Assembly (NCBI GenBank): GCA_045546195.1
Contig: JAZQCH010000001.1
Span: forward strand, 231,489-295,488
DNA: 64,000 bases
Direction: 5' to 3'
Source of the DNA: Candidatus Enterousia sp.
GTDB taxonomy: Bacteria; Pseudomonadota; Alphaproteobacteria; Rs-D84
Shown: piece by piece, positions 1,624-62,158 of the stretch
Layout: each line of letters begins with the position of its first letter
How positions within the stretch are numbered: position 1 is the stretch's first letter
Translations under genes and position numbers: made by a program
The notes under the pieces: generated by a model
Database searches by the model: none
The model's input: only the letters and a program-made list of their open reading frames with translations
What the model was told of the DNA's origin: nothing

Positions 1624-3267
1624 ATGAAACATTATGATGTAATCATTATTGGTGGCGGACATGCGGGCACGGAATCGGCCGCCGCGTCCGCCCGTCGTGG
1701 TGCGAAAACATTGTTGTTAACCATGGCGCAATCCGACCTGGGGGCGTTATCGTGTAACCCCAGTATTGGTGGTCCCGGCAAATCCCAGATGGTTGCCGAA
1801 ATGGATGCGTTTGGTGGCGTTATGCCGCGTGCCGCCGACCGTGCGGGGATTCATTGGCGCACATTGAATGCGACACATGGCGCGGCGACACGCGCCCTGC
1901 GTGCGCAAATCGACCGTGATTTATATCATAATGCGATTGTTGATATTTTGTCGGAATATAAAAATCTGGATGTTGTTTTTGAACCGGTTGAATCTGTGGA
2001 TTTAGAAAACGCAATCGTTAACAACAAATATCATGCGCGCGCAATTGTTTTAACGACGGGAACATTTTTGAACGGCACGGTCACCCGTGGTGCGGAAAAA
2101 ATCCCGTCGGGACGTTTAATGGACGACGGCACATACCAAGACCGCGACCAAAATATATCAAATATTTTACAGAACGCGGGCTTTCGCATGTTGCGCCTGA
2201 AAACGGGCACGCCTGCGCGCATAAAACGCGATTCGATTGATTTTTCCGTCTGTGAAATTCAACCCGGCGACACGCCCCACGATTGGTTTTCCGACGGCGA
2301 TGAAAACAATAATTATGACGCGGTCTGCTATATCACACATACAACCGAAACTACGCACCAGATTATTCGTGATAACATCAAAAACGCGCCAATGTACAAC
2401 GGCGACATTCGTGGCACCGGCCCGCGCTATTGCCCCAGTCTGGAAGACAAGGTTATGCGTTTCCCCGAACATACATCACACCATGTGTTCCTTGAACCTG
2501 AGGGCTATGCCAGCGACCTTATCTATCCCAACGGCATTTCCACCAGTTTTGGCGCCGACATCCAGGACATCTGGATTCGTTCAATCCCGGGTCTGGAAAA
2601 CTGCGAAATTGCGCGCTATGGCTATGCGATTGAATACGATGCGATTGATGCGCGCGCCCTGAACGATAAATTACAATCCACGGACCGGCCACACCTGTTC
2701 TTTGCGGGTCAAATCAACGGCACATCCGGGTACGAAGAAGCGGCGGCCCAGGGCCTGGTTGCGGGGGCAAATGCTGCGGCGTATGCGCTGAATCTGCCGT
2801 ATTTGGAAATTGACCGCACAAATTCAATGATTGGGGTACTGATTGACGACATAACAACATTGGGTGTGGATGAACCATATCGTATGTTCACATCGCGCGC
2901 GGAATACCGCCTGAAACTGCGGGCGGACAATGCGATTGCACGCCTGGGAAAAATCGGTGTGGATTTGGGGTTAATTGACGCGGCGGCATACGAACGGAAA
3001 TTGGCGGCGCGCGCCGACCAAATTGCCGAAAATGATAAATTTTATGCGGGATATATCGCGCGTAATGAACGCGAAATTGCCGCCTATAAACGCGACGCAG
3101 AATTAAAGATTCCGTCTGATTTTGTGTATTCGGGCCTGCCGGGGCTGACCAATGAATTGGTTGAAAAATTAACGGCAACGCGCCCGGAAAACATTGCCGA
3201 CCTGACGCGTATACCGGGCATGACCCCCGCCGGCATCATGGTCGTGCTAAGAAAAATCAAGGCATAA
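1624..3267 (+). CDS. mnmG: tRNA uridine 5-carboxymethylaminomethyl modification enzyme MnmG (GidA); 3' end rebuilt by an adjacent insertion
   Basis: 547 aa; FAD motif 'DVIIIGGGHAGTE', 'GPRYCPS', 'FLEPEG', 'GYAIEYD', 'FAGQINGTSGYEEAAAQGL', 'EPYRMFTSRAEYRL' aligning along MnmG rather than the shorter TrmFO; C-terminal 17 codons are duplicated downstream at 4558-4609. Confidence 0.85.
   Translation: MKHYDVIIIGGGHAGTESAAASARRGAKTLLLTMAQSDLGALSCNPSIGGPGKSQMVAEMDAFGGVMPRAADRAGIHWRTLNATHGAATRALRAQIDRDLYHNAIVDILSEYKNLDVVFEPVESVDLENAIVNNKYHARAIVLTTGTFLNGTVTRGAEKIPSGRLMDDGTYQDRDQNISNILQNAGFRMLRLKTGTPARIKRDSIDFSVCEIQPGDTPHDWFSDGDENNNYDAVCYITHTTETTHQIIRDNIKNAPMYNGDIRGTGPRYCPSLEDKVMRFPEHTSHHVFLEPEGYASDLIYPNGISTSFGADIQDIWIRSIPGLENCEIARYGYAIEYDAIDARALNDKLQSTDRPHLFFAGQINGTSGYEEAAAQGLVAGANAAAYALNLPYLEIDRTNSMIGVLIDDITTLGVDEPYRMFTSRAEYRLKLRADNAIARLGKIGVDLGLIDAAAYERKLAARADQIAENDKFYAGYIARNEREIAAYKRDAELKIPSDFVYSGLPGLTNELVEKLTATRPENIADLTRIPGMTPAGIMVVLRKIKA
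3217..3267 (+). repeat. direct repeat copy 1 of mnmG 3' terminus (within the functional ORF)
   Basis: 'gggcatgacccccgccggcatcatggtcgtgctaagaaaaatcaaggcataa' repeated at 4558-4609 with 8 mismatches in 52 nt; first 21 nt identical. Confidence 0.8.
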
Positions 3268-3284
3268 AAATCACAGCCCTTTTT

Positions 3285-3312
3285 GTCATTCCCGCGCAGG
3301 CGGGAATAGGGG
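3285..3312 (+). repeat. hairpin repeat copy A (attcccgc-gcag-gcgggaat; 8-bp stem, 4-nt loop)
   Basis: 'gtcattcccgcgcaggcgggaataggg' also at 4130-4158 (+) and 4523-4551 (-); followed by 'cttgaaaa' -35-like box. Confidence 0.8.
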
Positions 3313-3320
3313 CTTGAAAA

Positions 3321-3650
3321 TTACTGTCCTTGTTTGAATCCATCAACAATATATTCAATAATTTTCGCAAGTATAAATGGTGTACAAAAAGCCAATATTA
3401 AATACAAAATAATAAACATATCGCCATCTAAAAAGTCATCCCAATCCGCCATAATGGCCATAATACAACACAGCACAATAGCTACAACTAGGCATAGGCG
3501 ACGAACTCCCGTATTGTTCGGAACCGCAACTAATCTAATCATTTGTAAGATTTTATTGATGTTGTTATGAAAATCATCAATAAACCAAATGATTATACCC
3601 CAAACAATACAAAATAACATAATACCTAAAATTTCTATTAACAGTTCCAT
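3321..3650 (-). CDS. small hydrophobic membrane protein (~109 aa, 2-3 predicted TM)
   Basis: ORF track 3321..3785 trimmed to internal Met 'MELLIEILGIMLFCIVWGIIIWF' whose ATG (3650) lies 4 nt after the stop of the upstream gene; strongly hydrophobic segments; AT-rich codon usage unlike neighbours. Confidence 0.45.
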   Translation of the reverse strand: MELLIEILGIMLFCIVWGIIIWFIDDFHNNINKILQMIRLVAVPNNTGVRRLCLVVAIVLCCIMAIMADWDDFLDGDMFIILYLILAFCTPFILAKIIEYIVDGFKQGQ

Positions 3651-3654
3651 CTTT

Positions 3655-4017
3655 TTATTCCTTTTTGCCGATAATTGCCCAAATGAGTGCGCTGATTGTA
3701 AAGAAAAGCCAGCCACCAAAAATACCACCCAAAGCAGAGAGTTGGTACACTGTATATTTTCTCTTAATATTTCGTTTCCAAGCAATAAACATTGGAGTAT
3801 ATGTCATGATTATTATAATTGGCACAAATATCAAAGAACGGACAAAAGATACTTTAAGGGCAATTTCTTGTGCGCTAGAATAAGCATATTCGGCATTTAA
3901 GGCGGTTTGTCTAATATCGTCATAAGTCATCGCAAATGTAAATATTATACCAATGGTGATTGCCCAAAGAAACATCCTTAATGGAAACTTATTGTTATTA
4001 AGTTGGTTTGTTTCCAT
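3655..4017 (-). CDS. small hydrophobic membrane protein (~120 aa, ~3 predicted TM)
   Basis: ORF track 3655..4134 trimmed to 'METNQLNNNKFPLRMFLWAITIGIIFTF' start preceded by AGGAGAG Shine-Dalgarno (revcomp of 4024-4030); hydrophobic stretches; forms tight operon with 3321..3650. Confidence 0.5.
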   Translation of the reverse strand: METNQLNNNKFPLRMFLWAITIGIIFTFAMTYDDIRQTALNAEYAYSSAQEIALKVSFVRSLIFVPIIIIMTYTPMFIAWKRNIKRKYTVYQLSALGGIFGGWLFFTISALIWAIIGKKE

Positions 4018-4129
4018 AATATTTTCTCTCCTTATACAAAAATAACCGCCATAATTCCCATCGGATTCATGTCTAATTATATCAGGAAAATATACAAATG
4101 TAAAATTGTGTGTATTGGATAAAAACCTT

Positions 4130-4158
4130 GTCATTCCCGCGCAGGCGGGAATAGGGTC
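4130..4158 (+). repeat. hairpin repeat copy B / left terminal inverted repeat of GIY-YIG cassette
   Basis: 'gtcattcccgcgcaggcgggaatagggtc' is the exact reverse complement of 4523-4551. Confidence 0.85.
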
Positions 4159-4187
4159 TTGAAAAAATTTGTGTGCCCTTGTACAAT
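4159..4187 (+). promoter_or_regulatory. sigma70-like promoter (TTGAAA-17 bp-TACAAT) reading into GIY-YIG gene
   Basis: -35 TTGAAA at 4159-4164, 17-bp spacer, -10 TACAAT at 4182-4187; the -35 is part of the repeat-associated 'cttgaaaa' motif also seen at 3313-3320. Confidence 0.5.
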
Positions 4188-4193
4188 TTTGAT

Positions 4194-4523
4194 ATGAAAG
4201 ATTATCACTTCTGGGTTTATATATTGTTTGATGAACGCGCCAAGGGCACTTATATTGGTGTGACGAATAATCTTGAACGGCGTATGTATGAACACAAAAT
4301 GGGATTGGACGACGGTTATACCAAAGAACATAATATTCATAAATTGGGATATTTTGAATACTACAAATATGTTAATAATGCGATTGCGCGTGAAAAACAA
4401 TTAAAGAAATGGAAACGTGCATGGAAATATCGTCTGATTGAAACCATGAATCCAAATTGGCTTGATTTGGCCGACGATTTAGAGAAAAACATAGCGTTTT
4501 GGAAAAACAAAGAAACAGAATAG
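4194..4523 (+). CDS. GIY-YIG nuclease family protein (UPF0213/YhbQ-like, stand-alone)
   Basis: 'HFWVYILFDERAKGTYIGVTNNLERRMYEHK' = GIY...YIG motif pair with the conserved Arg and Glu; ORF track gives 4173 (GTG) but ATG 4194 sits just downstream of the predicted -10; ~109 aa. Confidence 0.8.
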   Translation: MKDYHFWVYILFDERAKGTYIGVTNNLERRMYEHKMGLDDGYTKEHNIHKLGYFEYYKYVNNAIAREKQLKKWKRAWKYRLIETMNPNWLDLADDLEKNIAFWKNKETE

Positions 4524-4551
4524 ACCCTATTCCCGCCTGCGCGGGAATGAC
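4523..4551 (-). repeat. hairpin repeat copy C / right terminal inverted repeat of GIY-YIG cassette
   Basis: 'gaccctattcccgcctgcgcgggaatgac' = reverse complement of copy B; begins at the GIY-YIG stop codon. Confidence 0.85.
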
Positions 4552-4557
4552 AAAATG

Positions 4558-4609
4558 GGGCATGACCCCCGCCGGCATTATGGTGGTGCTGCGAAAGATT
4601 AAATCATAA
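4558..4609 (+). pseudogene. displaced orphan copy of mnmG 3' terminus (encodes ...GMTPAGIMVVLRKIKS*)
   Basis: 52-nt segment 85% identical to 3217-3267, in frame ending with TAA, no upstream ORF body. Confidence 0.75.
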
Positions 4610-4616
4610 AAACATC

Positions 4617-4645
4617 TTGCCAAAATTGGCGGTGTGCGGTATAAT
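4617..4645 (+). promoter_or_regulatory. sigma70-like promoter (TTGCCA-17-TATAAT) for Cys-rich protein gene
   Basis: TTGCCA 4617-4622, 17-bp spacer, TATAAT 4640-4645. Confidence 0.55.
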
Positions 4646-4672
4646 TCCAAGGAAAAATACAGGAAAAACACT

Positions 4673-4702
4673 GCCTAATCCAAAGGGACGATTAGATTAG
4701 GC
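4673..4702. promoter_or_regulatory. 30-nt palindromic element 'gcctaatc-N14-gattaggc' between promoter and start codon
   Basis: perfect 8-bp inverted arms; same 30-mer family (25/30 identical) found twice at 62009-62123 upstream of paralogous gene. Confidence 0.6.
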
Positions 4703-4755
4703 ATAATTTCCAAAAACAATTTCCCAGATTTACGCATGTTTTATCCCCCTTTGTT

Positions 4756-5793
4756 GTGCCTAAAAAAAACGTCGGTTTATTTGCGGTATTTTTGACGGCA
4801 ATAATCGGTGTTCGTGACGCGAACGCATACACCAGTTATATATGTAACGAGATTGGCTCCTGTTCAACTTACTATGTCGCCGGTGGATTCTCCACCACCG
4901 TATCATCCGTGCCAGATGTATATAGTTATGCAGAAGGTTGTGCCCAAGCTGTATGGGTCCGAACCAGTGCCGACTCAACCAGTTCTGGCGGATGCGTGTT
5001 GATTCCAACGTGTCTGTCCTGTGATGACGGGTATGAATTAACAGATAGCGCGTTGCCAATCCTGTTTAACAACAGCAATTCTGCATGTACCAGTGTCAAC
5101 AGTCAATACGACATAAAATACTGTGCCAAAAAATCTGACAGTGGGGACAGCGGCAGTACAACAACCTGCACATCCAGCAATTGTGCATCGTCTGGTTGGT
5201 CGACACACAGTACAGGATACCTGGTGCAAACATTTCGCGAATGTGTAAATGACCAATGTGTTGAAACAGTGCGATATGGTTGTGCCCAGGGTTATTTTGG
5301 ATCAGATGATGGCATAAATCCATATCTAAGTTCGGCATATGGTTGCGTTAAATGTCCGGGCTATTATGTGAGTGGCAACAGCTATGCGACAACAACCAAT
5401 ACCACGCTTGTGCCCACGGTTGCGGGCTGTTATGTTGTGGCAACCGGCGACGAAACAGAATTCTCAGACGGAACAGGAACCTATGTTTTTACCCCGTATT
5501 CCAACGCAACCGAATACTGTTATTATGATTTTGGCAGTTGTACCGGCGTTACACCGGCTTGTGCCACGTCGTCCGGCACAGCATTTGCTGTGGTTTCTGG
5601 CACCAAGGCACACGATGAAACGGGAACTCATTGCTGGTGCAATGTCAATGGCAAAAGTTTCTATTTTTCTTCGCAAAGCACTGCATCTGCTTGTGCAGCA
5701 AACTGTGATGACATGTGTTCAAATGCCGTTTTTGGATTTGGCGCAAATGGCGGTCAACCAATGGTTTCGCTAGACGACCTTGGGTGCTATTAA
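4756..5793 (+). CDS. secreted Cys/Gly/Ser/Thr/Tyr-rich protein, no recognisable domain (paralog P1)
   Basis: 345 aa, GTG start, signal peptide 'MPKKNVGLFAVFLTAIIGVRDANA', >30 Cys, low-complexity S/T/G/Y composition; compositionally similar to 62159..63316 and 30416..32557. Confidence 0.6.
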   Translation: MPKKNVGLFAVFLTAIIGVRDANAYTSYICNEIGSCSTYYVAGGFSTTVSSVPDVYSYAEGCAQAVWVRTSADSTSSGGCVLIPTCLSCDDGYELTDSALPILFNNSNSACTSVNSQYDIKYCAKKSDSGDSGSTTTCTSSNCASSGWSTHSTGYLVQTFRECVNDQCVETVRYGCAQGYFGSDDGINPYLSSAYGCVKCPGYYVSGNSYATTTNTTLVPTVAGCYVVATGDETEFSDGTGTYVFTPYSNATEYCYYDFGSCTGVTPACATSSGTAFAVVSGTKAHDETGTHCWCNVNGKSFYFSSQSTASACAANCDDMCSNAVFGFGANGGQPMVSLDDLGCY

Positions 5794-5851
5794 AATAGAT
5801 AAAAAAACCACTGGAAATTATTCTGGGGATAGATTATAGTCATTTGCGCAC

Positions 5852-5927
5852 GCCGGTGTAGCTCAGCTGGTAGAGCATCTCATTCGTAATGAGGGGGTCG
5901 TAGGTTCAAGTCCTATCACCGGCACCA
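5852..5927 (+). tRNA. tRNA-Thr (anticodon CGU)
   Basis: cloverleaf: acceptor gccggtg/caccggc, D-arm gctcagctggtagagc, anticodon loop ttCGTaa, T-arm ggttcaagtcc, encoded CCA. Confidence 0.85.
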
Positions 5928-5935
5928 CTTATCAA

Positions 5936-5958
5936 TCCCGCCTGCGCGGGATTTTTTA
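5936..5958 (+). terminator. rho-independent terminator after tRNA-Thr
   Basis: 'atcccgcctgcgcgggatttttt' hairpin plus T-run; core is the same cccgc-NNNN-gcggg hairpin as repeats A/B/C. Confidence 0.7.
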
Positions 5959-6013
5959 ATAAAAAACACCCCTGATTTATGGTATAATTACCAAAAATAT
6001 ATGGGGGAATTAC

Positions 6014-7351
6014 ATGATTCAATATAAATTTGGCAAAAGTTATTATATACAAAGCACAGGCAATGTTTTCCATGAACGCGAACTAATCGTTGTTCACGCT
6101 GAATCCAGCCGTGGTCGCCATGCGTACAGTTATGACCAGTCGCGTGGCACCGCCCGTGATTATCAAAACAGGGCCAATGATTTGGGCCTGGCCGAAGAAT
6201 ATATTGCGGAAAAACTGGCCCAGGTATCATTTCGTGCGGACGAAACACCAGTTGCGGCACATGAAAAAATAAGTAAATTTATCGATTCTAAAAATCAGTA
6301 CGCTGAATTTGATGCCTCAATCGCCGCGGATATAAACGCCCGCGAAGATTATCATGTGCGTCTGGAAAACGCCGAATACTATAAACAGGCACTGTTGGCA
6401 TTGACAAAATTTGAACCTGCGGGCGTCCAGGCTATTCTGACTGGCACAAAATATCCATTTTCCATGGCGGCGCATGATTTTGCCCGTGGCATTTCGCATC
6501 GTCAAATTAAACAAGATATTGCCAAATTGTCATCCCCGGTTAAGAAACGCCTGCGTGAATTTGCGGCGCAACGCAATTATATCCTGTCGGACGAAGCATG
6601 TAATACCGAAGCGCGCGACTATATCGACACTGTCAGGCGCAGTTATCCGCTGATTAACCATTCGCCCGAGCGCGTAGAATACATCATCGCCCGTGCGGTT
6701 GATGATATGTTGCGTGATGCGTTGGAATACAAATACTACAAACGCACTGGCAATATGGCGATATTTGTCGGTCCATATGGTCAACGCACCGCAGATTCTT
6801 TATCTGATACAGAATTGCTGGATGTTGTTGGTTGGAACGCGATGCAAAATTATGGCAATGCATTACAGGTCATCCGTCGCATGAATCAAATTATCGCCGC
6901 TGAACGCGACATAACGCCATTTATGACCGAATTGAACAAGACCCTGGGCGACGGCTATGCCAACCAAGAAATAATTCGTATGATGTTTGAAACATTGTCG
7001 CCACACTATAATAAATTCAAGCACAATAAAAAGGTCACAGAATTTATCGGTCGTCTGCGCTTTTATGTCAAAGACGCGCGCCTGGCACAGCACATGGCGG
7101 AAACATTTGGCCTAAAAGAAGCCCCAAAACCAAACAAGGACAAGGCGCGCGCCAAACTGTTGGCCGCCGCCGACCGTATTGTGTCGGGCGACAATGTGTC
7201 GGGTGTTGTCGTTATTGACCGTGAATTACAGTTGGTACGTGATTTTGCGGTCGAACCCACCCCGGAAACATTTGGTCGGATTAAGAAATCTATAAAACCA
7301 ACCGCGGTCCAGGCTGAAATCCTGCGCAAATATGGTCCGCGCCAAAAATAA
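6014..7351 (+). CDS. hypothetical cytoplasmic protein (445 aa), no recognisable domain
   Basis: ORF with extended -10 'tggtataat' and GGGGGAA SD upstream; no signal peptide or TM; adjacent to tRNA-Thr. Confidence 0.55.
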   Translation: MIQYKFGKSYYIQSTGNVFHERELIVVHAESSRGRHAYSYDQSRGTARDYQNRANDLGLAEEYIAEKLAQVSFRADETPVAAHEKISKFIDSKNQYAEFDASIAADINAREDYHVRLENAEYYKQALLALTKFEPAGVQAILTGTKYPFSMAAHDFARGISHRQIKQDIAKLSSPVKKRLREFAAQRNYILSDEACNTEARDYIDTVRRSYPLINHSPERVEYIIARAVDDMLRDALEYKYYKRTGNMAIFVGPYGQRTADSLSDTELLDVVGWNAMQNYGNALQVIRRMNQIIAAERDITPFMTELNKTLGDGYANQEIIRMMFETLSPHYNKFKHNKKVTEFIGRLRFYVKDARLAQHMAETFGLKEAPKPNKDKARAKLLAAADRIVSGDNVSGVVVIDRELQLVRDFAVEPTPETFGRIKKSIKPTAVQAEILRKYGPRQK

Positions 7352-36114: not shown

Positions 36115-36156
36115 ACATTTGCAAACGTCCCATTTTTGTCCTAGAATCTATTTATT

Positions 36157-38196
36157 ATGAAATTCAAGAAATTCTTGCGCATATTATTAAATATATTCTT
36201 TTGGGCGTTTGTCGCCGGTATTGCGTCGTTGGCGGCGTTGGTACTGGTGTATGGCAACGATTTGCCGGATTACAAAAAATTGGCAACCTATGCCCCGCCG
36301 GTTGCGACGCGCCTGTATGCGTCCGACGGTTCGTTATTACAAGAATACGCCGAAGAACGCCGTGTCTTTATTGATTACGCGGATATGCCGCCGATGTTGG
36401 TTAACGCGTTTATCGCCGCCGAAGATCAAAATTTCTGGACGCATCCCGGCATTGATGTCCAGGGTATAACCCGCGCATTGGCAAATAATGCCCTGCGTGC
36501 GATGGGGCGCGACACAACTCTGTCGGGGGCGTCAACCATCACACAACAGGTGGCCAAGAATTTCTTTTTAACATCTGAACGCACCCTCTCGCGCAAGATA
36601 AAAGAGGCTATACTTGCCCTGCGTCTGGAACGCAGTTTTTCTAAACAGCATATTTTGACCCTGTACATGAACCAAATATTCCTGGGGGCACGCGCGTACG
36701 GTGTTGGTTCGGCGGCATTGATGTATTTTAACAAACCTGTGTCTGAATTAAGCCTGGCGGAATGTGCGTTCCTGGCATCCTTGCCCAAGGCACCGAATAA
36801 TCGCACCCGTGCGGTCGAACGTCGTAATTATGTTCTGCGCCGCATGGTCGAAGAAGGATTTATATCCCAGGCTGATGCCGATGCCGCCGCCGCCGAAGAA
36901 TTAAATATCAACAGTGGCTTTACCGCCCAGATGGAAGCGGACTTTCAATATTTCGCCGAAGATGTCCGCCGTCAATTACTGGGTACACTTGGTCGCGAAA
37001 CATTGTACAACCAGGGCCTGTACATCAAGACAACAATTGTTCCTGAATTACAGCGTGCCGCCGCCGCCGCGTTAAACAAAGAATTGGATGTTTATAACAA
37101 TGGACGCACCGAACAACTCCAGGGGGCGATTATCGCGATGAATCCGCATACCGGTCGCATCGTTGCCATGACGGGCGGTCGTTCATTTCAGGACAGTTCG
37201 TTTAACCGCGCAACCCAGGCATACCGTCAAATCGGTTCAACAATCAAACCATTTGTGTATTTGGCGGCATTGGAACGCGGATACAGTCCACAAACAATGA
37301 TTCTGGATGCGCCGATTGTTGGTTGGCGTGAAAATGACACATTGTGGAAACCTGAAAATTACGATAAAAAATTCTTGGGCGATGTACCGCTTCGTCTGTC
37401 GCTGGAAACATCGCGAAATGTTCCAACGGTGCGTTTGGTTGAACAAATCGGAACCGAAAACGCGATTGAGGCCGCCCAGCGTTTCGGCGTCTATCCCGCC
37501 GATATGAAAAATATAAACCTGTCCATGGCGTTGGGGTCGGGCGAAACGACATTGGAAAAATTGGTTTTGGGGTATTCTGCGTTTATCAATGGTGGTCGCG
37601 TAATTCAGCCGAAATTGGTTGACTATATCGAAGACCGCTATGGTCGCCTGATTGATGGCACACAAACAGAAATTGTTGAATGGTCACCTGAATTAACCCC
37701 GCCGTCGGTCACGACCGATGACGAACCATTGTCCGACCCGCAAAGTCTGTACCAGATGGTGTCGATACTCCAGGGTGCGGTTGAACGCGGCACCGGGAAA
37801 CAGGCGCGCGTTCCCGGCCACACAATTGCTGGTAAAACCGGCACATCTAATGATGTCAAAGATGTCTGGTTTGTCGGATTTTCCAAGAATTTAATTGCCG
37901 GTGTCTATTTGGGGTTTGATACGCCAAAATCATTGGGGCGTGGTGCGGGTTCGCACATGGCGGCGCGTGTGTTTGCGGATTTTATGCGTGTTGCCCTGGC
38001 CGATGAAAAGAACCAGCCGTTTTCTGTCCCAGACGGTATGACATTTATGCGTGTTAACCGGCGCAGTGGTGCCGCTGCCACCGCCGACCCCGACGGCACG
38101 ATTATTACCGAAGTGTTCAAATCGGGCCAATCGCCAAACCCCGCCCCGCGTCAAACCGCGGCAAAATCCAGTGCGGTTGTTGGTGGCGTATTTTAA
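36157..38196 (+). CDS. mrcA: penicillin-binding protein 1A (bifunctional glycosyltransferase/transpeptidase)
   Basis: 679 aa; GT51 motifs 'EDQNFWTHPGID', 'GASTITQQ'; transpeptidase 'STIKP', 'SRN', 'KTGT'. Confidence 0.9.
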   Translation: MKFKKFLRILLNIFFWAFVAGIASLAALVLVYGNDLPDYKKLATYAPPVATRLYASDGSLLQEYAEERRVFIDYADMPPMLVNAFIAAEDQNFWTHPGIDVQGITRALANNALRAMGRDTTLSGASTITQQVAKNFFLTSERTLSRKIKEAILALRLERSFSKQHILTLYMNQIFLGARAYGVGSAALMYFNKPVSELSLAECAFLASLPKAPNNRTRAVERRNYVLRRMVEEGFISQADADAAAAEELNINSGFTAQMEADFQYFAEDVRRQLLGTLGRETLYNQGLYIKTTIVPELQRAAAAALNKELDVYNNGRTEQLQGAIIAMNPHTGRIVAMTGGRSFQDSSFNRATQAYRQIGSTIKPFVYLAALERGYSPQTMILDAPIVGWRENDTLWKPENYDKKFLGDVPLRLSLETSRNVPTVRLVEQIGTENAIEAAQRFGVYPADMKNINLSMALGSGETTLEKLVLGYSAFINGGRVIQPKLVDYIEDRYGRLIDGTQTEIVEWSPELTPPSVTTDDEPLSDPQSLYQMVSILQGAVERGTGKQARVPGHTIAGKTGTSNDVKDVWFVGFSKNLIAGVYLGFDTPKSLGRGAGSHMAARVFADFMRVALADEKNQPFSVPDGMTFMRVNRRSGAAATADPDGTIITEVFKSGQSPNPAPRQTAAKSSAVVGGVF

Positions 38197-38263
38197 TTCA
38201 TATAATAACATTTGTTTATCAAATCTTTTGTGATAAAATGTCAGCATAAGGAAAGGATTTTTT

Positions 38264-39352
38264 ATGCTGACAGACTATTTTTTGAATCATGGTTTTTCAT
38301 TTTTTGCCAGTGGCTGGACGCAATTCGCGGGTGGCTTTTTTGTTGCGTTCCTGGTGATGTTGTTGTTCGGTCGCCCATTTATTCGTGCCATGCGCACCTT
38401 CCAGGGCAAGGGGCAACCAATCAGTGAAAATGTCCCCCAGTCGCATTTACAAAAGGCTGGCACCCCAACCATGGGTGGTATTCTGGTCGTGATTGCGATT
38501 TTAATTGGTGCTACATTGTTTATGCCGATGTCGAATCCAACGGGCTGGATTGCGTTGGCATCACTTGTGATGTTCGGGATTTTGGGATTTATCGATGATT
38601 ATAAAAAGGTCACCAGTCAATCAAAGAAGGCGTCCAATGGTCTGTCGCCCTTAACACGCCTGGTTGTCGAAGGTGTCTTTGTCGTCATCCTGGCATATTT
38701 GATTAACAAGACCATGCCCCCATACATCCCTGAATATTCCCTGGCGATTGGGGCGGGCATCATCTTGCCGTTGGGTGCGTTTTATTATGTGTTTTCGTAT
38801 TTTGTAATTTGCGGTGGCGCGAACGCGACAAATATTACAGACGGTCTGGATGGTATGCTGGCAAAATTATATATGCCGGTATTGGTTGTGTTGGTTGTTG
38901 CGCTCTACGGTGCGACGCGCATTGGATTTATGGATACGGTTATGTTCCTGCCGATGGCAAGTGGTTTGTATGCGGTGCTGGGGGCGGCGTTTGGGGCTGT
39001 TCTGGGATTTTTGTGGTATAATTCCAAGCCTGCTTCCATATTTATGGGGGATGTTGGTTCCCTGGCGCTGGGTGGATTTATGGGTACGGTCGCGATGCTG
39101 TTAAAGTCTGAAATAATCATGGGCGTTGCGGCAGGTATGATGGTTTTGATATTGCTGTCATCGTTCATCCAAACAATGTATTTCAAAATCACGCGTAAAT
39201 TAACTGGGACTGGTCGTCGCGTATTTCTGCGCGCGCCCCTGCATCATCATTTCGAAGAATTGGGCTGGACCGAAACCAAGATTGTTGAACGTTTCTTTAT
39301 CATGTCGATTTTGTTTTCAGGTCTGGCATTGGTTCTGTTAAAGTTCGCATAA
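38264..39352 (+). CDS. mraY: phospho-N-acetylmuramoyl-pentapeptide transferase
   Basis: 362 aa; 'GTPTMGG', 'ATNITDGLDG', 'MGDVGSLALGG' MraY motifs. Confidence 0.9.
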   Translation: MLTDYFLNHGFSFFASGWTQFAGGFFVAFLVMLLFGRPFIRAMRTFQGKGQPISENVPQSHLQKAGTPTMGGILVVIAILIGATLFMPMSNPTGWIALASLVMFGILGFIDDYKKVTSQSKKASNGLSPLTRLVVEGVFVVILAYLINKTMPPYIPEYSLAIGAGIILPLGAFYYVFSYFVICGGANATNITDGLDGMLAKLYMPVLVVLVVALYGATRIGFMDTVMFLPMASGLYAVLGAAFGAVLGFLWYNSKPASIFMGDVGSLALGGFMGTVAMLLKSEIIMGVAAGMMVLILLSSFIQTMYFKITRKLTGTGRRVFLRAPLHHHFEELGWTETKIVERFFIMSILFSGLALVLLKFA

Positions 39353-39363
39353 GATGATGGGGT

Positions 39364-40524
39364 GTGGTGGCTATGTTCAAACTGACGCGAAACGATGACA
39401 GTAAATTAACCAGTTGGTATTTTGAAATTGATCGTCGCCTGTTGGGGTGTGTATTGTTGTTGATTGCGCTGTCGGCGATATTTGTTGTGTCGGCGGGGTC
39501 GGTTGCGGCGGAACGCATCGGCATGCCATGGTACTTTTATTTGGTCAAGGCTATCCCGTTTTATTGTGTCGGTCTGGTATTTTTATTCGCGTCCAGTTTT
39601 TTGAATACCAAATGGGTGTTGCGTGTTTCGGCGGCAAATTTGCTGTTTGGTCTGGCATTACTGCCATTAACGGTCGTTGCGCCGCATATTATTAACAATT
39701 CTGCGCGATTTGTATCATTTGGATTTTTCAATATTATGCCGGCCGATATTATGAAACCTGGCTTTATTATAATGACGGCGTATTTTTTATCCCGGATGAA
39801 GGAACGCTATGGCACGAACATATTCTTTAATCGCGAAGCGTGGCGTTTTGACACCTGGCTCAGTTGGGTATATTATCTGGCACTGTTTGGTTTGACGGTT
39901 TTGATTGTCTTTAACCACCCTGACTTTGGTACTGCGGTTTTATACTTGCTGGTATTCTGTGCGATGGTGTTTATTGCGGGATTGCCACTGGTGTTGATTC
40001 CGGTTTTTGCGGGTATTGGGGTACTGATGTTAACGGTTGCCTTCTTTACATTGGGGCACGTTCATCGTCGTATAATTGCGTTCTTTACCGGCACTGGTGA
40101 CACATACCAGGTTGACAATTCTGTTGATTCAATTCGTCACGGTGGATTGCTGGGGTCGGGCGACGACGCATTTGTAAAACAATACCTGCCCGACGTACAC
40201 ACAGACTTTATCTTTGCCGCCATTGCCGAAGATTTGGGTGCGATAATGGCGTGTGGACTGTTGTTGTTATTGTTCTTTGTATTTCGTCGTTTGATAAAAA
40301 ATGCGACCAATGCACGTGATTTGTTTGTGTTGTATGCGACGGGTGGCACGGCGGCATTATTTGGTACGCAAATCTGTTTTAATATGTTGACGACCTTAAA
40401 TCTGTTCGCGCCCAAGGGTATGACACTGCCGTTCATATCGTACGGGGGCAGTTCGCTGTTGGCATATTGCCTGTTGTTCGGTATGATATTGGCAATTATC
40501 CGCGAAGATAAGTGGAAGCAATAA
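39364..40524 (+). CDS. ftsW: SEDS-family peptidoglycan polymerase FtsW
   Basis: 386 aa, ~10 TM, conserved 'FIFAAIAEDLG' and 'LPFISYGGSS' motifs; between mraY and murG as in the dcw cluster. Confidence 0.85.
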   Translation: MVAMFKLTRNDDSKLTSWYFEIDRRLLGCVLLLIALSAIFVVSAGSVAAERIGMPWYFYLVKAIPFYCVGLVFLFASSFLNTKWVLRVSAANLLFGLALLPLTVVAPHIINNSARFVSFGFFNIMPADIMKPGFIIMTAYFLSRMKERYGTNIFFNREAWRFDTWLSWVYYLALFGLTVLIVFNHPDFGTAVLYLLVFCAMVFIAGLPLVLIPVFAGIGVLMLTVAFFTLGHVHRRIIAFFTGTGDTYQVDNSVDSIRHGGLLGSGDDAFVKQYLPDVHTDFIFAAIAEDLGAIMACGLLLLLFFVFRRLIKNATNARDLFVLYATGGTAALFGTQICFNMLTTLNLFAPKGMTLPFISYGGSSLLAYCLLFGMILAIIREDKWKQ

Positions 40525-57907: not shown

Positions 57908-57981
57908 GGCCTGGTGGCAGAGTGGTTATGCAGAGGACTGCAAATCCTTGGATGCCGGTTCGATTCCGACCCAGGCCTCCA
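57908..57981 (+). tRNA. tRNA-Cys (anticodon GCA)
   Basis: acceptor ggcctgg/ccaggcc, anticodon loop ctGCAaa, T-arm ggttcgattcc, encoded CCA. Confidence 0.85.
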
Positions 57982-57985
57982 CAAA

Positions 57986-58013
57986 TAAAAAAGAGCCCCT
58001 GGGGGGCTTTTTT
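57986..58013 (+). terminator. rho-independent terminator after tRNA-Cys
   Basis: 'aaaaagagcccctggggggctttttt'. Confidence 0.7.
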
Positions 58014-58156: not shown

Positions 58157-58186
58157 ATTCCGACCCAGGCCTCCACAAATAAAAAA
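58157..58186 (+). repeat. 30-bp direct repeat of tRNA-Cys 3' end (second copy)
   Basis: 'attccgacccaggcctccacaaataaaaaa' identical to 57963-57992; followed by its own terminator 'caccccatgtgggtgatttttt'. Confidence 0.8.
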
Positions 58187-58237
58187 ACACCCCATGTGGG
58201 TGATTTTTTATGTAAGTTTAAGGAAGGGAATATATTC

Positions 58238-61919: not shown

Positions 61920-62008
61920 TTTCCCAACATGGTGGATTGATATAAATAAAATCGCAACAAAAAACGTCCAACGCCCCAGATTCCCTGGCGAATCGTCAAA
62001 AAAATTAT

Positions 62009-62123
62009 GCCTAATCCAAACGGTGGTTTAGATTAGACATCTTTTATACAGCAATTTTGTCCCAAAACCGGTAAAAAGTCAATCCTAATTTGTGCCTAAT
62101 CTAAACCACCGTTTGGATTAGGC
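62009..62123. repeat. pair of 30-nt 'gcctaatc...gattaggc' palindromic elements in inverted orientation (29/30 identical) flanking a 57-bp spacer, upstream of Cys-rich paralog P3
   Basis: left arm 62009-62038 'gcctaatccaaacggtggtttagattagac'; right arm 62094-62123 is its reverse complement; same family as 4673-4702. Confidence 0.75.
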
Positions 62124-62158
62124 AGCGTTATGTACAAAAACAAGGGGAGAAAACAACC

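Follow-up and report, generated by a model that had tools for sequence, protein, structure and literature searches.

A GIY-YIG gene flanked by inverted hairpin repeats in a gut alphaproteobacterium: a very probable member of the Ssn/SRM system of single-stranded DNA endonucleases

The locus considered here, part of a 64-kb stretch of DNA (hereafter the window) from an uncultured gut alphaproteobacterium, raises the question of why a gene for a small GIY-YIG nuclease should lie between perfect inverted repeats next to mnmG. The original prediction held that this is no ordinary chromosomal gene but something like a minimal mobile cassette or a homing-endonuclease-like unit. In our assessment, the gene at 4194-4523 very probably encodes a site-specific endonuclease for single-stranded DNA (ssDNA) of the Ssn family, and the three repeats around it are the cognate hairpins, known as Ssn-related motifs (SRM) or, in Neisseria, as the Neisseria Transformation Sequence (NTS). 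The association of repeat and nuclease is real and specific, yet it is a member of a published system and not a new kind of cassette.

The 29-mer GTCATTCCCGCGCAGGCGGGAATAGGGTC, found on the forward strand at 4130-4158, is exactly inverted on the reverse strand at 4523-4551, a match seen in none of 100 dinucleotide shuffles. The perfect inverted repeat reported earlier is thus confirmed, although its true length is 32 nt (4128-4159 and 4522-4553). As ssDNA, each arm folds into the stable hairpin that had been foreseen, with an 8-bp stem and a 4-nt loop (-9.1 to -10.1 kcal/mol; z -2.8 to -4.4). An Rfam scan of 3000-6200 (E<=1) matched the hairpins to nothing, yielding only tRNA-Thr and sub-threshold noise. 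A third copy on the forward strand at 3283-3320 shares 97% identity with 4128-4165 over 38 nt, CTTGAAAA included, and the outermost pair (3277-3314 and 4522-4559) likewise constitutes an inverted repeat of 38 nt at 95%. The hairpins proper occupy 3288-3307 in copy 1, 4133-4152 in copy 2 (the left arm, 4128-4165, forward strand), and 4529-4548 in copy 3 (the right arm, 4522-4553, reverse strand). Copy 1 has the orientation of copy 2 and forms the left limit of an AT-rich block, whereas copy 3 begins within the stop codon of the nuclease gene, as had been claimed. In both arms, a GTCAT sequence points away from the gene. These three are all the copies of the motif in the 64 kb, and every one of them is confined to this locus.

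Between the two arms lies the predicted open reading frame, which we call ssn (4194-4523, forward strand; ATG at 4194, TAG at 4521-4523). It encodes a single-domain GIY-YIG protein of 109 aa with Y9, Y20, and E67 as predicted catalytic residues. The Pfam domain PF01541 covers residues 6-79 (E=1.5e-15), and no domain other than GIY-YIG and the related T5orf172 was detected. A search of NCBIfam returned a single match, to the group-I-intron endonuclease model TIGR01453, at 19 bits against a cut-off of 56; the PDB sequence search gave no match at E<=0.01, and PADLOC matched neither Ssn nor the two cargo ORFs of the block to a defence system. More than 3,000 homologues were recovered, the closest from uncultured gut Alphaproteobacteria and Rickettsiales, and an exact look-up in public assemblies found no identical copy of the protein on record. 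The promoter that had been placed between the arms corresponds to a promoter-like site, TTGAAA-17-TACAAT, at 4159-4187 on the forward strand (10 of 12 matches). Its -35 box is entered by the tail of SRM copy 2, AATAGGGTCTTGAAAA, and since the third copy also carries CTTGAAAA, the "-35" box of ssn belongs to the repeat. Promoter-like geometry upstream of ssn is kept at four homologous loci (L001, L015, L098, and L131); the consensus itself is weak evidence for a promoter here, with 13 promoter-like sites in 1.6 kb as against 7.0 +/- 3.3 in shuffled sequences.

Proteins of this kind and their repeats have been characterized in Neisseria by Chenal et al. (Nat Commun 2025; PMC11893778), who described the NTS, CGTCATTCCCGCGMAVGCGGGAATCYRG, and defined the broader class of SRM. 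Their SsnA is a GIY-YIG protein of 94 aa, and 71% of its homologues have an SRM nearby, 42% having one on both sides (PMC11893778). The enzyme of N. meningitidis binds its motif solely as ssDNA and cuts it a few nucleotides upstream, with no activity on double-stranded DNA (dsDNA) or RNA; three more homologues, from two Neisseria species and Wolbachia, cut ssDNA near their own motifs (PMC11893778). Cleavage by SsnA is abolished by the substitutions Y6A, Y17A, and E64A, and in N. meningitidis the protein reduces transformation by NTS-containing DNA (PMC11893778). With regard to specificity, the C immediately after the palindrome is the most important single base for binding by the meningococcal enzyme, while the upstream GTC governs cleavage (PMC11893778). 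The same authors likened the NTS-ssnA-NTS arrangement to insertion sequences and to REP/RAYT, raised the matter of its mobility, and proposed a scenario of domestication (PMC11893778). In the literature that we searched, no later paper on Ssn mobility or structure was found, nor anything relevant that ties GIY-YIG proteins to repetitive extragenic palindromic repeats, REPIN, or terminal inverted repeats (TIR).

A tblastn search of a 7.3-Gb plasmid collection with the window protein recovered two chromosome-sized N. gonorrhoeae records filed there (E=2e-17). The gonococcal ORF in these records served as our SsnA reference. We took it to be SsnA because its frame (a 90-aa stretch plus four N-terminal residues) amounts to 94 aa, because Y, Y, and E then fall exactly on positions 6, 17, and 64, and because it has NTS flanks; indeed, 11 NTS copies lie within 3.3 kb at the gonococcal locus. 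By BLASTP, the window protein is 46% identical to this orthologue across an ungapped alignment of 89 residues (E=2e-27), well inside the E<1e-10 homology to SsnA by which the family was delimited (PMC11893778). Its Y9, Y20, and E67 align with Y6, Y17, and E64 of SsnA and are invariant across 20 aligned homologues. By these measures, Ssn belongs to the family of SsnA, single-domain GIY-YIG proteins of about 100 aa (PMC11893778), and would probably fall under CDD cd10448. Given this homology to an enzyme that cuts ssDNA, the supposed TIRs are better understood as the recognition motifs of the enzyme than as demonstrated ends of a transposon. Further resemblances are the motifs on both sides of the gene and the extra copies around neighboring genes for small membrane proteins. 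The differences are that the window holds three copies in 64 kb as opposed to hundreds per Neisseria genome, that the host is an uncultured gut alphaproteobacterium, and that the motif has a distinct tail.

This last difference bears directly on specificity. The hairpin core of the window repeats, GTCATTCCCGCGCAGGCGGGAAT, is identical to that of the Neisseria NTS, and the GTC upstream of the palindrome is conserved. When set against the published SRM pattern, HGTCWYN(0-2)YYVSBRHN(0-5)WNVSBRGN(0-2)RNCYNB, which is a search tool rather than a definition, the repeats agree with it from the 5' arm through the stem and depart from it in the 3' tail (AATAGGG for RNCYNB). The sequence that follows the palindrome is AGGG(N)CT, as opposed to C-Y-R-G in Neisseria, with an A at the position of the critical C. 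Because of this A and the mismatch to the pattern, the specificity must differ, and Ssn activity is not a given. From the sequences, we read the tail as probably marking a variant of the motif, not an exclusion from the Ssn family. Among the hairpin-scored loci, every one with a protein that shares at least 63% identity with that of the window (L003, L011, L015, L016, L019, and L020) has an AGGG or GGG tail, and all of the loci checked whose protein is more distant carry a C-type tail. The type of tail therefore follows the identity of the protein, such that motif and protein co-vary by clade, as would be expected of a recognition pair. One consequence is that the published pattern under-detects the family, in that it misses a clade of gut and termite-gut Alphaproteobacteria along with a common stem of Flavobacteriia. 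As the Ssn family is under development as a toolbox of site-specific ssDNA cutters, each pair of protein and motif is potentially a new specificity.

The arrangement of hairpin, gene, and hairpin extends well beyond this clade. Three homologous loci with proteins at 95%, 81%, and 80% identity adjoin mnmG, rbfA/lepA, and a class-A PBP gene, with a hairpin beside the gene in all of them, and one of the three shows a compensated change in the stem (CCCGC/GCGGG to CCTGC/GCAGG). A scan of one genome per species provided 80 homologous loci from Flavobacteriia, Alphaproteobacteria, Gammaproteobacteria, Chloroflexota, Myxococcota, Planctomycetota, Omnitrophota, CPR, and others. For each, the 200 nt upstream of the gene were aligned to the reverse complement of the 200 nt downstream. 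Inverted-repeat flanks, taken as a score of at least 15, were present at 57 of the 80 loci, a score reached by 0.8% of 6,888 within-locus control comparisons; 53 loci outscored all of their own controls. The form of the repeat is TGTCAT, an 8-bp stem, a 4-nt loop, the returning stem, and the tail, with GTCAT directed outward on both sides of the gene. The sequence of the stem varies by lineage (ATTCCCGC, ATTCCTGC, ACCCCCGC, ATGCCCGC, ATCCCCTC, and others) while complementarity is kept. Two-sided changes occur at five of the eight stem pairs (23 cells versus 2.9 in shuffles); the set had been preselected for perfect stems, so a figure of 100% pairing is circular and only the diversity of stems is informative. 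Taken with its spread over many phyla, this arrangement bears out the earlier view that repeats and nuclease belong together and that the gene is not an ordinary chromosomal one.

Within 300 nt of the gene, matches to the published SRM pattern reach 27 times the density seen in the rest of these loci, contrary to what a genome-wide REP-like repeat unlinked to GIY-YIG genes would show. The pattern scores at just 23 of the 80 loci, since, as implemented here, it misses the frequent Flavobacteriia stem ATTCCTGC.

By analogy with the meningococcal enzyme, a mode of action may be proposed. Ssn would leave duplex DNA untouched. Where the motif strand becomes single-stranded, be it in incoming transforming or conjugative DNA, during replication, or in repair, the 8-bp hairpin would form, and Ssn would bind its stem and 3' tail and hydrolyze the strand a few nucleotides 5' of GTCAT. 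Because GTCAT faces outward at both ends of the locus, the cuts are predicted to fall just left of 3283 and of 4128 on the forward strand and just right of 4553 on the reverse strand, positions that would coincide with the limits of the block and of the cassettes that make it up, the cargo operon and ssn. Single-stranded recombination substrates could thereby be severed at the cassette boundaries, and homologous recombination across them would be limited or shaped, comparable to the effect on transformation in N. meningitidis. The gene itself would be driven from its own promoter-like site, the -35 box of which falls within the upstream SRM tail. With all three copies at the locus, the 64 kb give no evident sign of a Neisseria-like, genome-wide function in recombination; any biological role in this gut alphaproteobacterium, like the cleavage of ssDNA and the positions of the cuts, is suggested by the published enzymes.

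The surroundings of the gene preserve traces of a past rearrangement. The block at 3271-4557 has a GC content of 34.9%, in contrast to 46.7% for the window, and is bracketed by a 55-nt direct repeat derived from the end of mnmG. The left copy (3216-3270, forward strand) is the functional 3' end of the gene, comprising the last 16 codons, the stop codon, and 3 nt; the mnmG ORF at 1624-3267 matches TIGR00136 at E=3e-192. The right copy (4558-4612, forward strand) is displaced and nonfunctional, with 85% identity to the left one, and begins 4-6 nt outside SRM copy 3. Seven of the eight sites at which the two differ are synonymous, which indicates that both evolved as coding sequence and that once-functional alleles were joined there, so the block appears to have brought its own mnmG end, displacing that of the resident gene. 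A decayed version of the remnant is kept in L001, L098, and L131, and the duplication event is therefore older than the divergence of these relatives. We would infer that the duplicated end fits a recombination event with one homologous anchor in mnmG and the other end set beside the hairpin. The start of the displaced copy also lies where a cut by Ssn on the reverse strand is predicted.

The motif also has a life apart from the gene. An exact 27-mer from the repeat occurs 48 times on 43 metagenome contigs, several of which share accession prefixes with a termite-gut MAG (L019). Nine of these occurrences flank an ssn gene and nine are at contig ends, leaving 30 of the 39 assessable ones with no adjacent ssn, and in this respect the motif resembles that of Neisseria, likewise a dispersed repeat. 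Many of the 30 sit in doublets of opposite orientation with 62-108 nt between the copies, and such gene-less doublets carry the inner sequence of the gene-bearing units. Judged by their sequence, these doublets may be REPIN- or MITE-like. The check proposed earlier, a search for further units and for solo repeats, thus turns up both.

Such dispersal gives some substance to the foremost alternative, namely that SRM-ssn-SRM is an autonomous, IS-like or homing-like element that cuts at or near its terminal hairpins and is copied by host repair or recombination, with the doublets as nonautonomous derivatives. This proposal shares the enzyme and the motifs with the Ssn explanation and adds active self-propagation. 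We regard it as possible but unlikely. In its favor, the unit alone, about 430 bp, is shared by L015, L016, L003, and L011 with the window (88%, 79%, 77%, and 76% DNA identity, respectively), their flanks being unrelated to those of the window; the left flank of L011 is syntenic with 36154-40451 of the window, yet the window has no unit there. The low GC content of the block, the diverged mnmG duplicate bracketing it with a junction a few nucleotides outside the terminal hairpin, the many occurrences of the 27-mer away from ssn, and the IS-like architecture noted in PMC11893778 point the same way. Were the unit self-propagating, the junction at 4554-4560 would record the joining of the mnmG 3' end of a foreign block to that of the resident gene.

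Against this, identical proteins (P0031, P0070, and mostly P0010) occur in many samples in one context each, with no recent movement visible. Of the earlier notion of a minimal mobile cassette, the unity of gene and repeats holds, with mobility a hypothesis. Inspection by eye revealed no target-site duplication at L015 or L016, and the differing positions between species could also result from loss or from recombination at dispersed repeats. The window has a single unit in 64 kb. Of the candidates for an empty site, only the left flank of L011 is represented in it, those of L015, L016, and L003 being absent, and as the synteny with L011 stops at the unit, an exact empty site is undefinable. 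With regard to the hallmarks of IS and MITE, there is no transposase domain, the mnmG duplication, at 55 nt and diverged, is no classical target-site duplication, and gene-less doublets exist. To our knowledge, GIY-YIG hydrolases form no covalent intermediate with DNA and cannot themselves join strands, which places strand joining beyond the enzyme. The unit therefore stands apart from REP/REPIN-RAYT, in which a single-copy gene likewise appears to lie between inverted hairpin repeats recognized as ssDNA, the repeats are dispersed as singlets and inverted doublets, and the position is fixed within a species: a GIY-YIG hydrolase in place of an HUH/Y1 transposase could not alone cut and rejoin. 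Accounts that invoke RAYT/REP itself (an IS200/IS605-type Y1 transposase) were rejected because the window protein has no HUH/Y1 domain. There is perhaps one chance among several that SRM-ssn-SRM propagates itself, or did so until recently, by a new type of mechanism, with the doublets as MITE-like passengers. Cassettes bounded by motifs, a duplicated gene end, shifting positions, and doublets all bear on whether such systems are domesticated or mobile.

Two further explanations dispense with the Ssn system altogether. The hairpins might be generic REP-like or terminator structures, arising by chance or serving as flanks that affect mRNA stability, with no functional tie to the nuclease. They are indeed stable, the motif variant is also found away from ssn genes in metagenomes, and the downstream copy could stabilize the 3' end of the mRNA. 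Yet no T-run follows the hairpins, and a terminator scan made no call at them. Moreover, this explanation accounts neither for the recurrence of the arrangement at 57 of 80 loci across phyla, with conserved nonpalindromic flanks (GTCAT and the tail) in fixed orientation, nor for a tail variant that follows the protein clade, and binding and cleavage have been directly demonstrated for four homologues (PMC11893778). We consider it highly improbable.

Hardly any more credible is a free-standing GIY-YIG homing endonuclease of the I-TevI/Seg type that cleaves alleles lacking the insertion in their duplex mnmG 3' region and is propagated by gene conversion, even though the protein has a catalytic domain of that fold family and a weak similarity to TIGR01453, and the gene is intergenic, inserted at the duplicated 3' end of the conserved gene mnmG. 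At 109 aa, the protein is a bare catalytic domain that lacks a linker and a DNA-binding domain, its TIGR01453 score is far below the cut-off, its homologues are found at many unrelated sites rather than at mnmG, with no phage or intron location, and meningococcal SsnA, the family member assayed on duplex DNA, leaves it uncut and cuts ssDNA only (PMC11893778). The phage form of this reading was rejected because the family has no homologue in 50,697 phage records; PHROGs gave a single weak family match with function-less annotation. The homing-endonuclease part of the original prediction is accordingly abandoned.

The other cassette of the block consists of two reverse-strand genes bracketed by SRM copies 1 and 2. 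Cargo ORF-A (3321-3653) encodes 110 aa and ORF-B (3655-4020, with a start at 4018 after GGAGAG) 121 aa; each product has three hydrophobic segments and no family match, and the two form an operon with a strong promoter-like site at 4104-4076 on the reverse strand (TTTACA-17-TATAAT, 11 of 12). An analogy may be drawn with the dRS3/NIME arrays and the "minimal mobile elements" of Neisseria, in which ATTCCC-N8-GGGAAT hairpins bound variable cassettes between conserved genes. Similarly, the interval from mnmG through tRNA-Thr to ileS is variable among relatives of the window, with repeats at the cassette borders; the window differs in having far fewer repeats with a variant tail and in belonging to another phylum. 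The relative L001 has other ORFs in place of the cargo, yet shares mnmG, the SRMs, and ssn with the window at 92% identity.

The 3' end of mnmG is present twice, as 55-nt copies at 3216-3270 and 4558-4612 that lie one on each side of the SRM-bounded block carrying the GIY-YIG gene ssn (SRM, the Ssn-related motif hairpin with GTCAT facing outward). The two copies differ at 8 sites, seven of them synonymous, and the right-hand copy is also found, in decayed form, in the relatives L001, L098, and L131. MnmG itself (1624-3267) is 547 aa long against a model of 616 positions and matches that model in two stretches; it therefore appears to lack part of the region preceding the C-terminal helical bundle.

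Within the block, the space between SRM1 (3283-3320) and SRM2 (4128-4165) is occupied by a minus-strand two-gene operon (3321-4020), which encodes small predicted membrane proteins of 110 and 121 aa, neither of them with a family match. L001 has other ORFs in its place, between flanks 92% identical to those of the window. The region beyond the block contains an ORF (4756-5793) for a cysteine-rich protein of 345 aa, whose N-terminus is signal-like and which matches no Pfam family. Because it is missing from the otherwise syntenic L001, L098, and L131, this ORF constitutes an indel in its own right, located between the ssn block and tRNA-Thr (CGT; 5852-5927). Across the whole mnmG-tRNA-Thr-ileS interval, the gene contents of the window and L001 are not alike: OmpH stands in L001 where the window has a 445-aa ORF (6014-7351).

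SRM copies are also arranged in other ways. Among the metagenome loci L095 to L137 are +/- SRM doublets without a gene, with an inter-copy spacing of 62-108 nt (e.g., L114 1930-2046 and L132 1130-1246). Their inner sequence is common to gene-bearing units, of which they seem to be REPIN- or MITE-like derivatives. At L097, L105, L110, L126, L137, and other loci, the terminal repeat is prolonged directly outside GTCAT into a second hairpin module, TTTTACAAAAA-stem-AAAG-stem-TTTTT, whose A/T-rich stems vary among copies yet remain complementary; the lineage with this module, found in these metagenome contigs, is possibly from termite gut, and the module was not seen in the lineage of the window. 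Elsewhere, ssn is surrounded by arrays resembling the NIME repeat arrays of Neisseria, in which full and partial SRM copies occur, several in tandem (L016 2300-3040; L011 4860-5440); in L011, for example, the downstream side has four repeats of a 24-nt period. The contigs encoding the Ssn homologue P0010 (L138 to L147) are shorter than 2 kb in 15 of 16 cases, perhaps because the assemblies broke where SRM copies are repeated. In the N. gonorrhoeae record NZ_CP119142.1, which is listed as a plasmid but is a chromosome of 2.17 Mb, the ATG of ssnA (L165 1495-1503) lies 1 base out of the conserved reading frame; either the gene is a pseudogene there or the sequence contains an error.

A second palindromic repeat family, unrelated to SRM, has the form TGCCTAATCCAAA-8 nt-TTTGGATTAGGCA with a 12-bp stem, and copies lie at 4664-4709, 62000-62045, and 62085-62130; the copy at 4672-4703 was called terminator-like on the minus strand. 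Finally, a 51-nt direct repeat (57963-58013 and 58157-58207; 82%) is followed at each copy by a different terminator-like hairpin.
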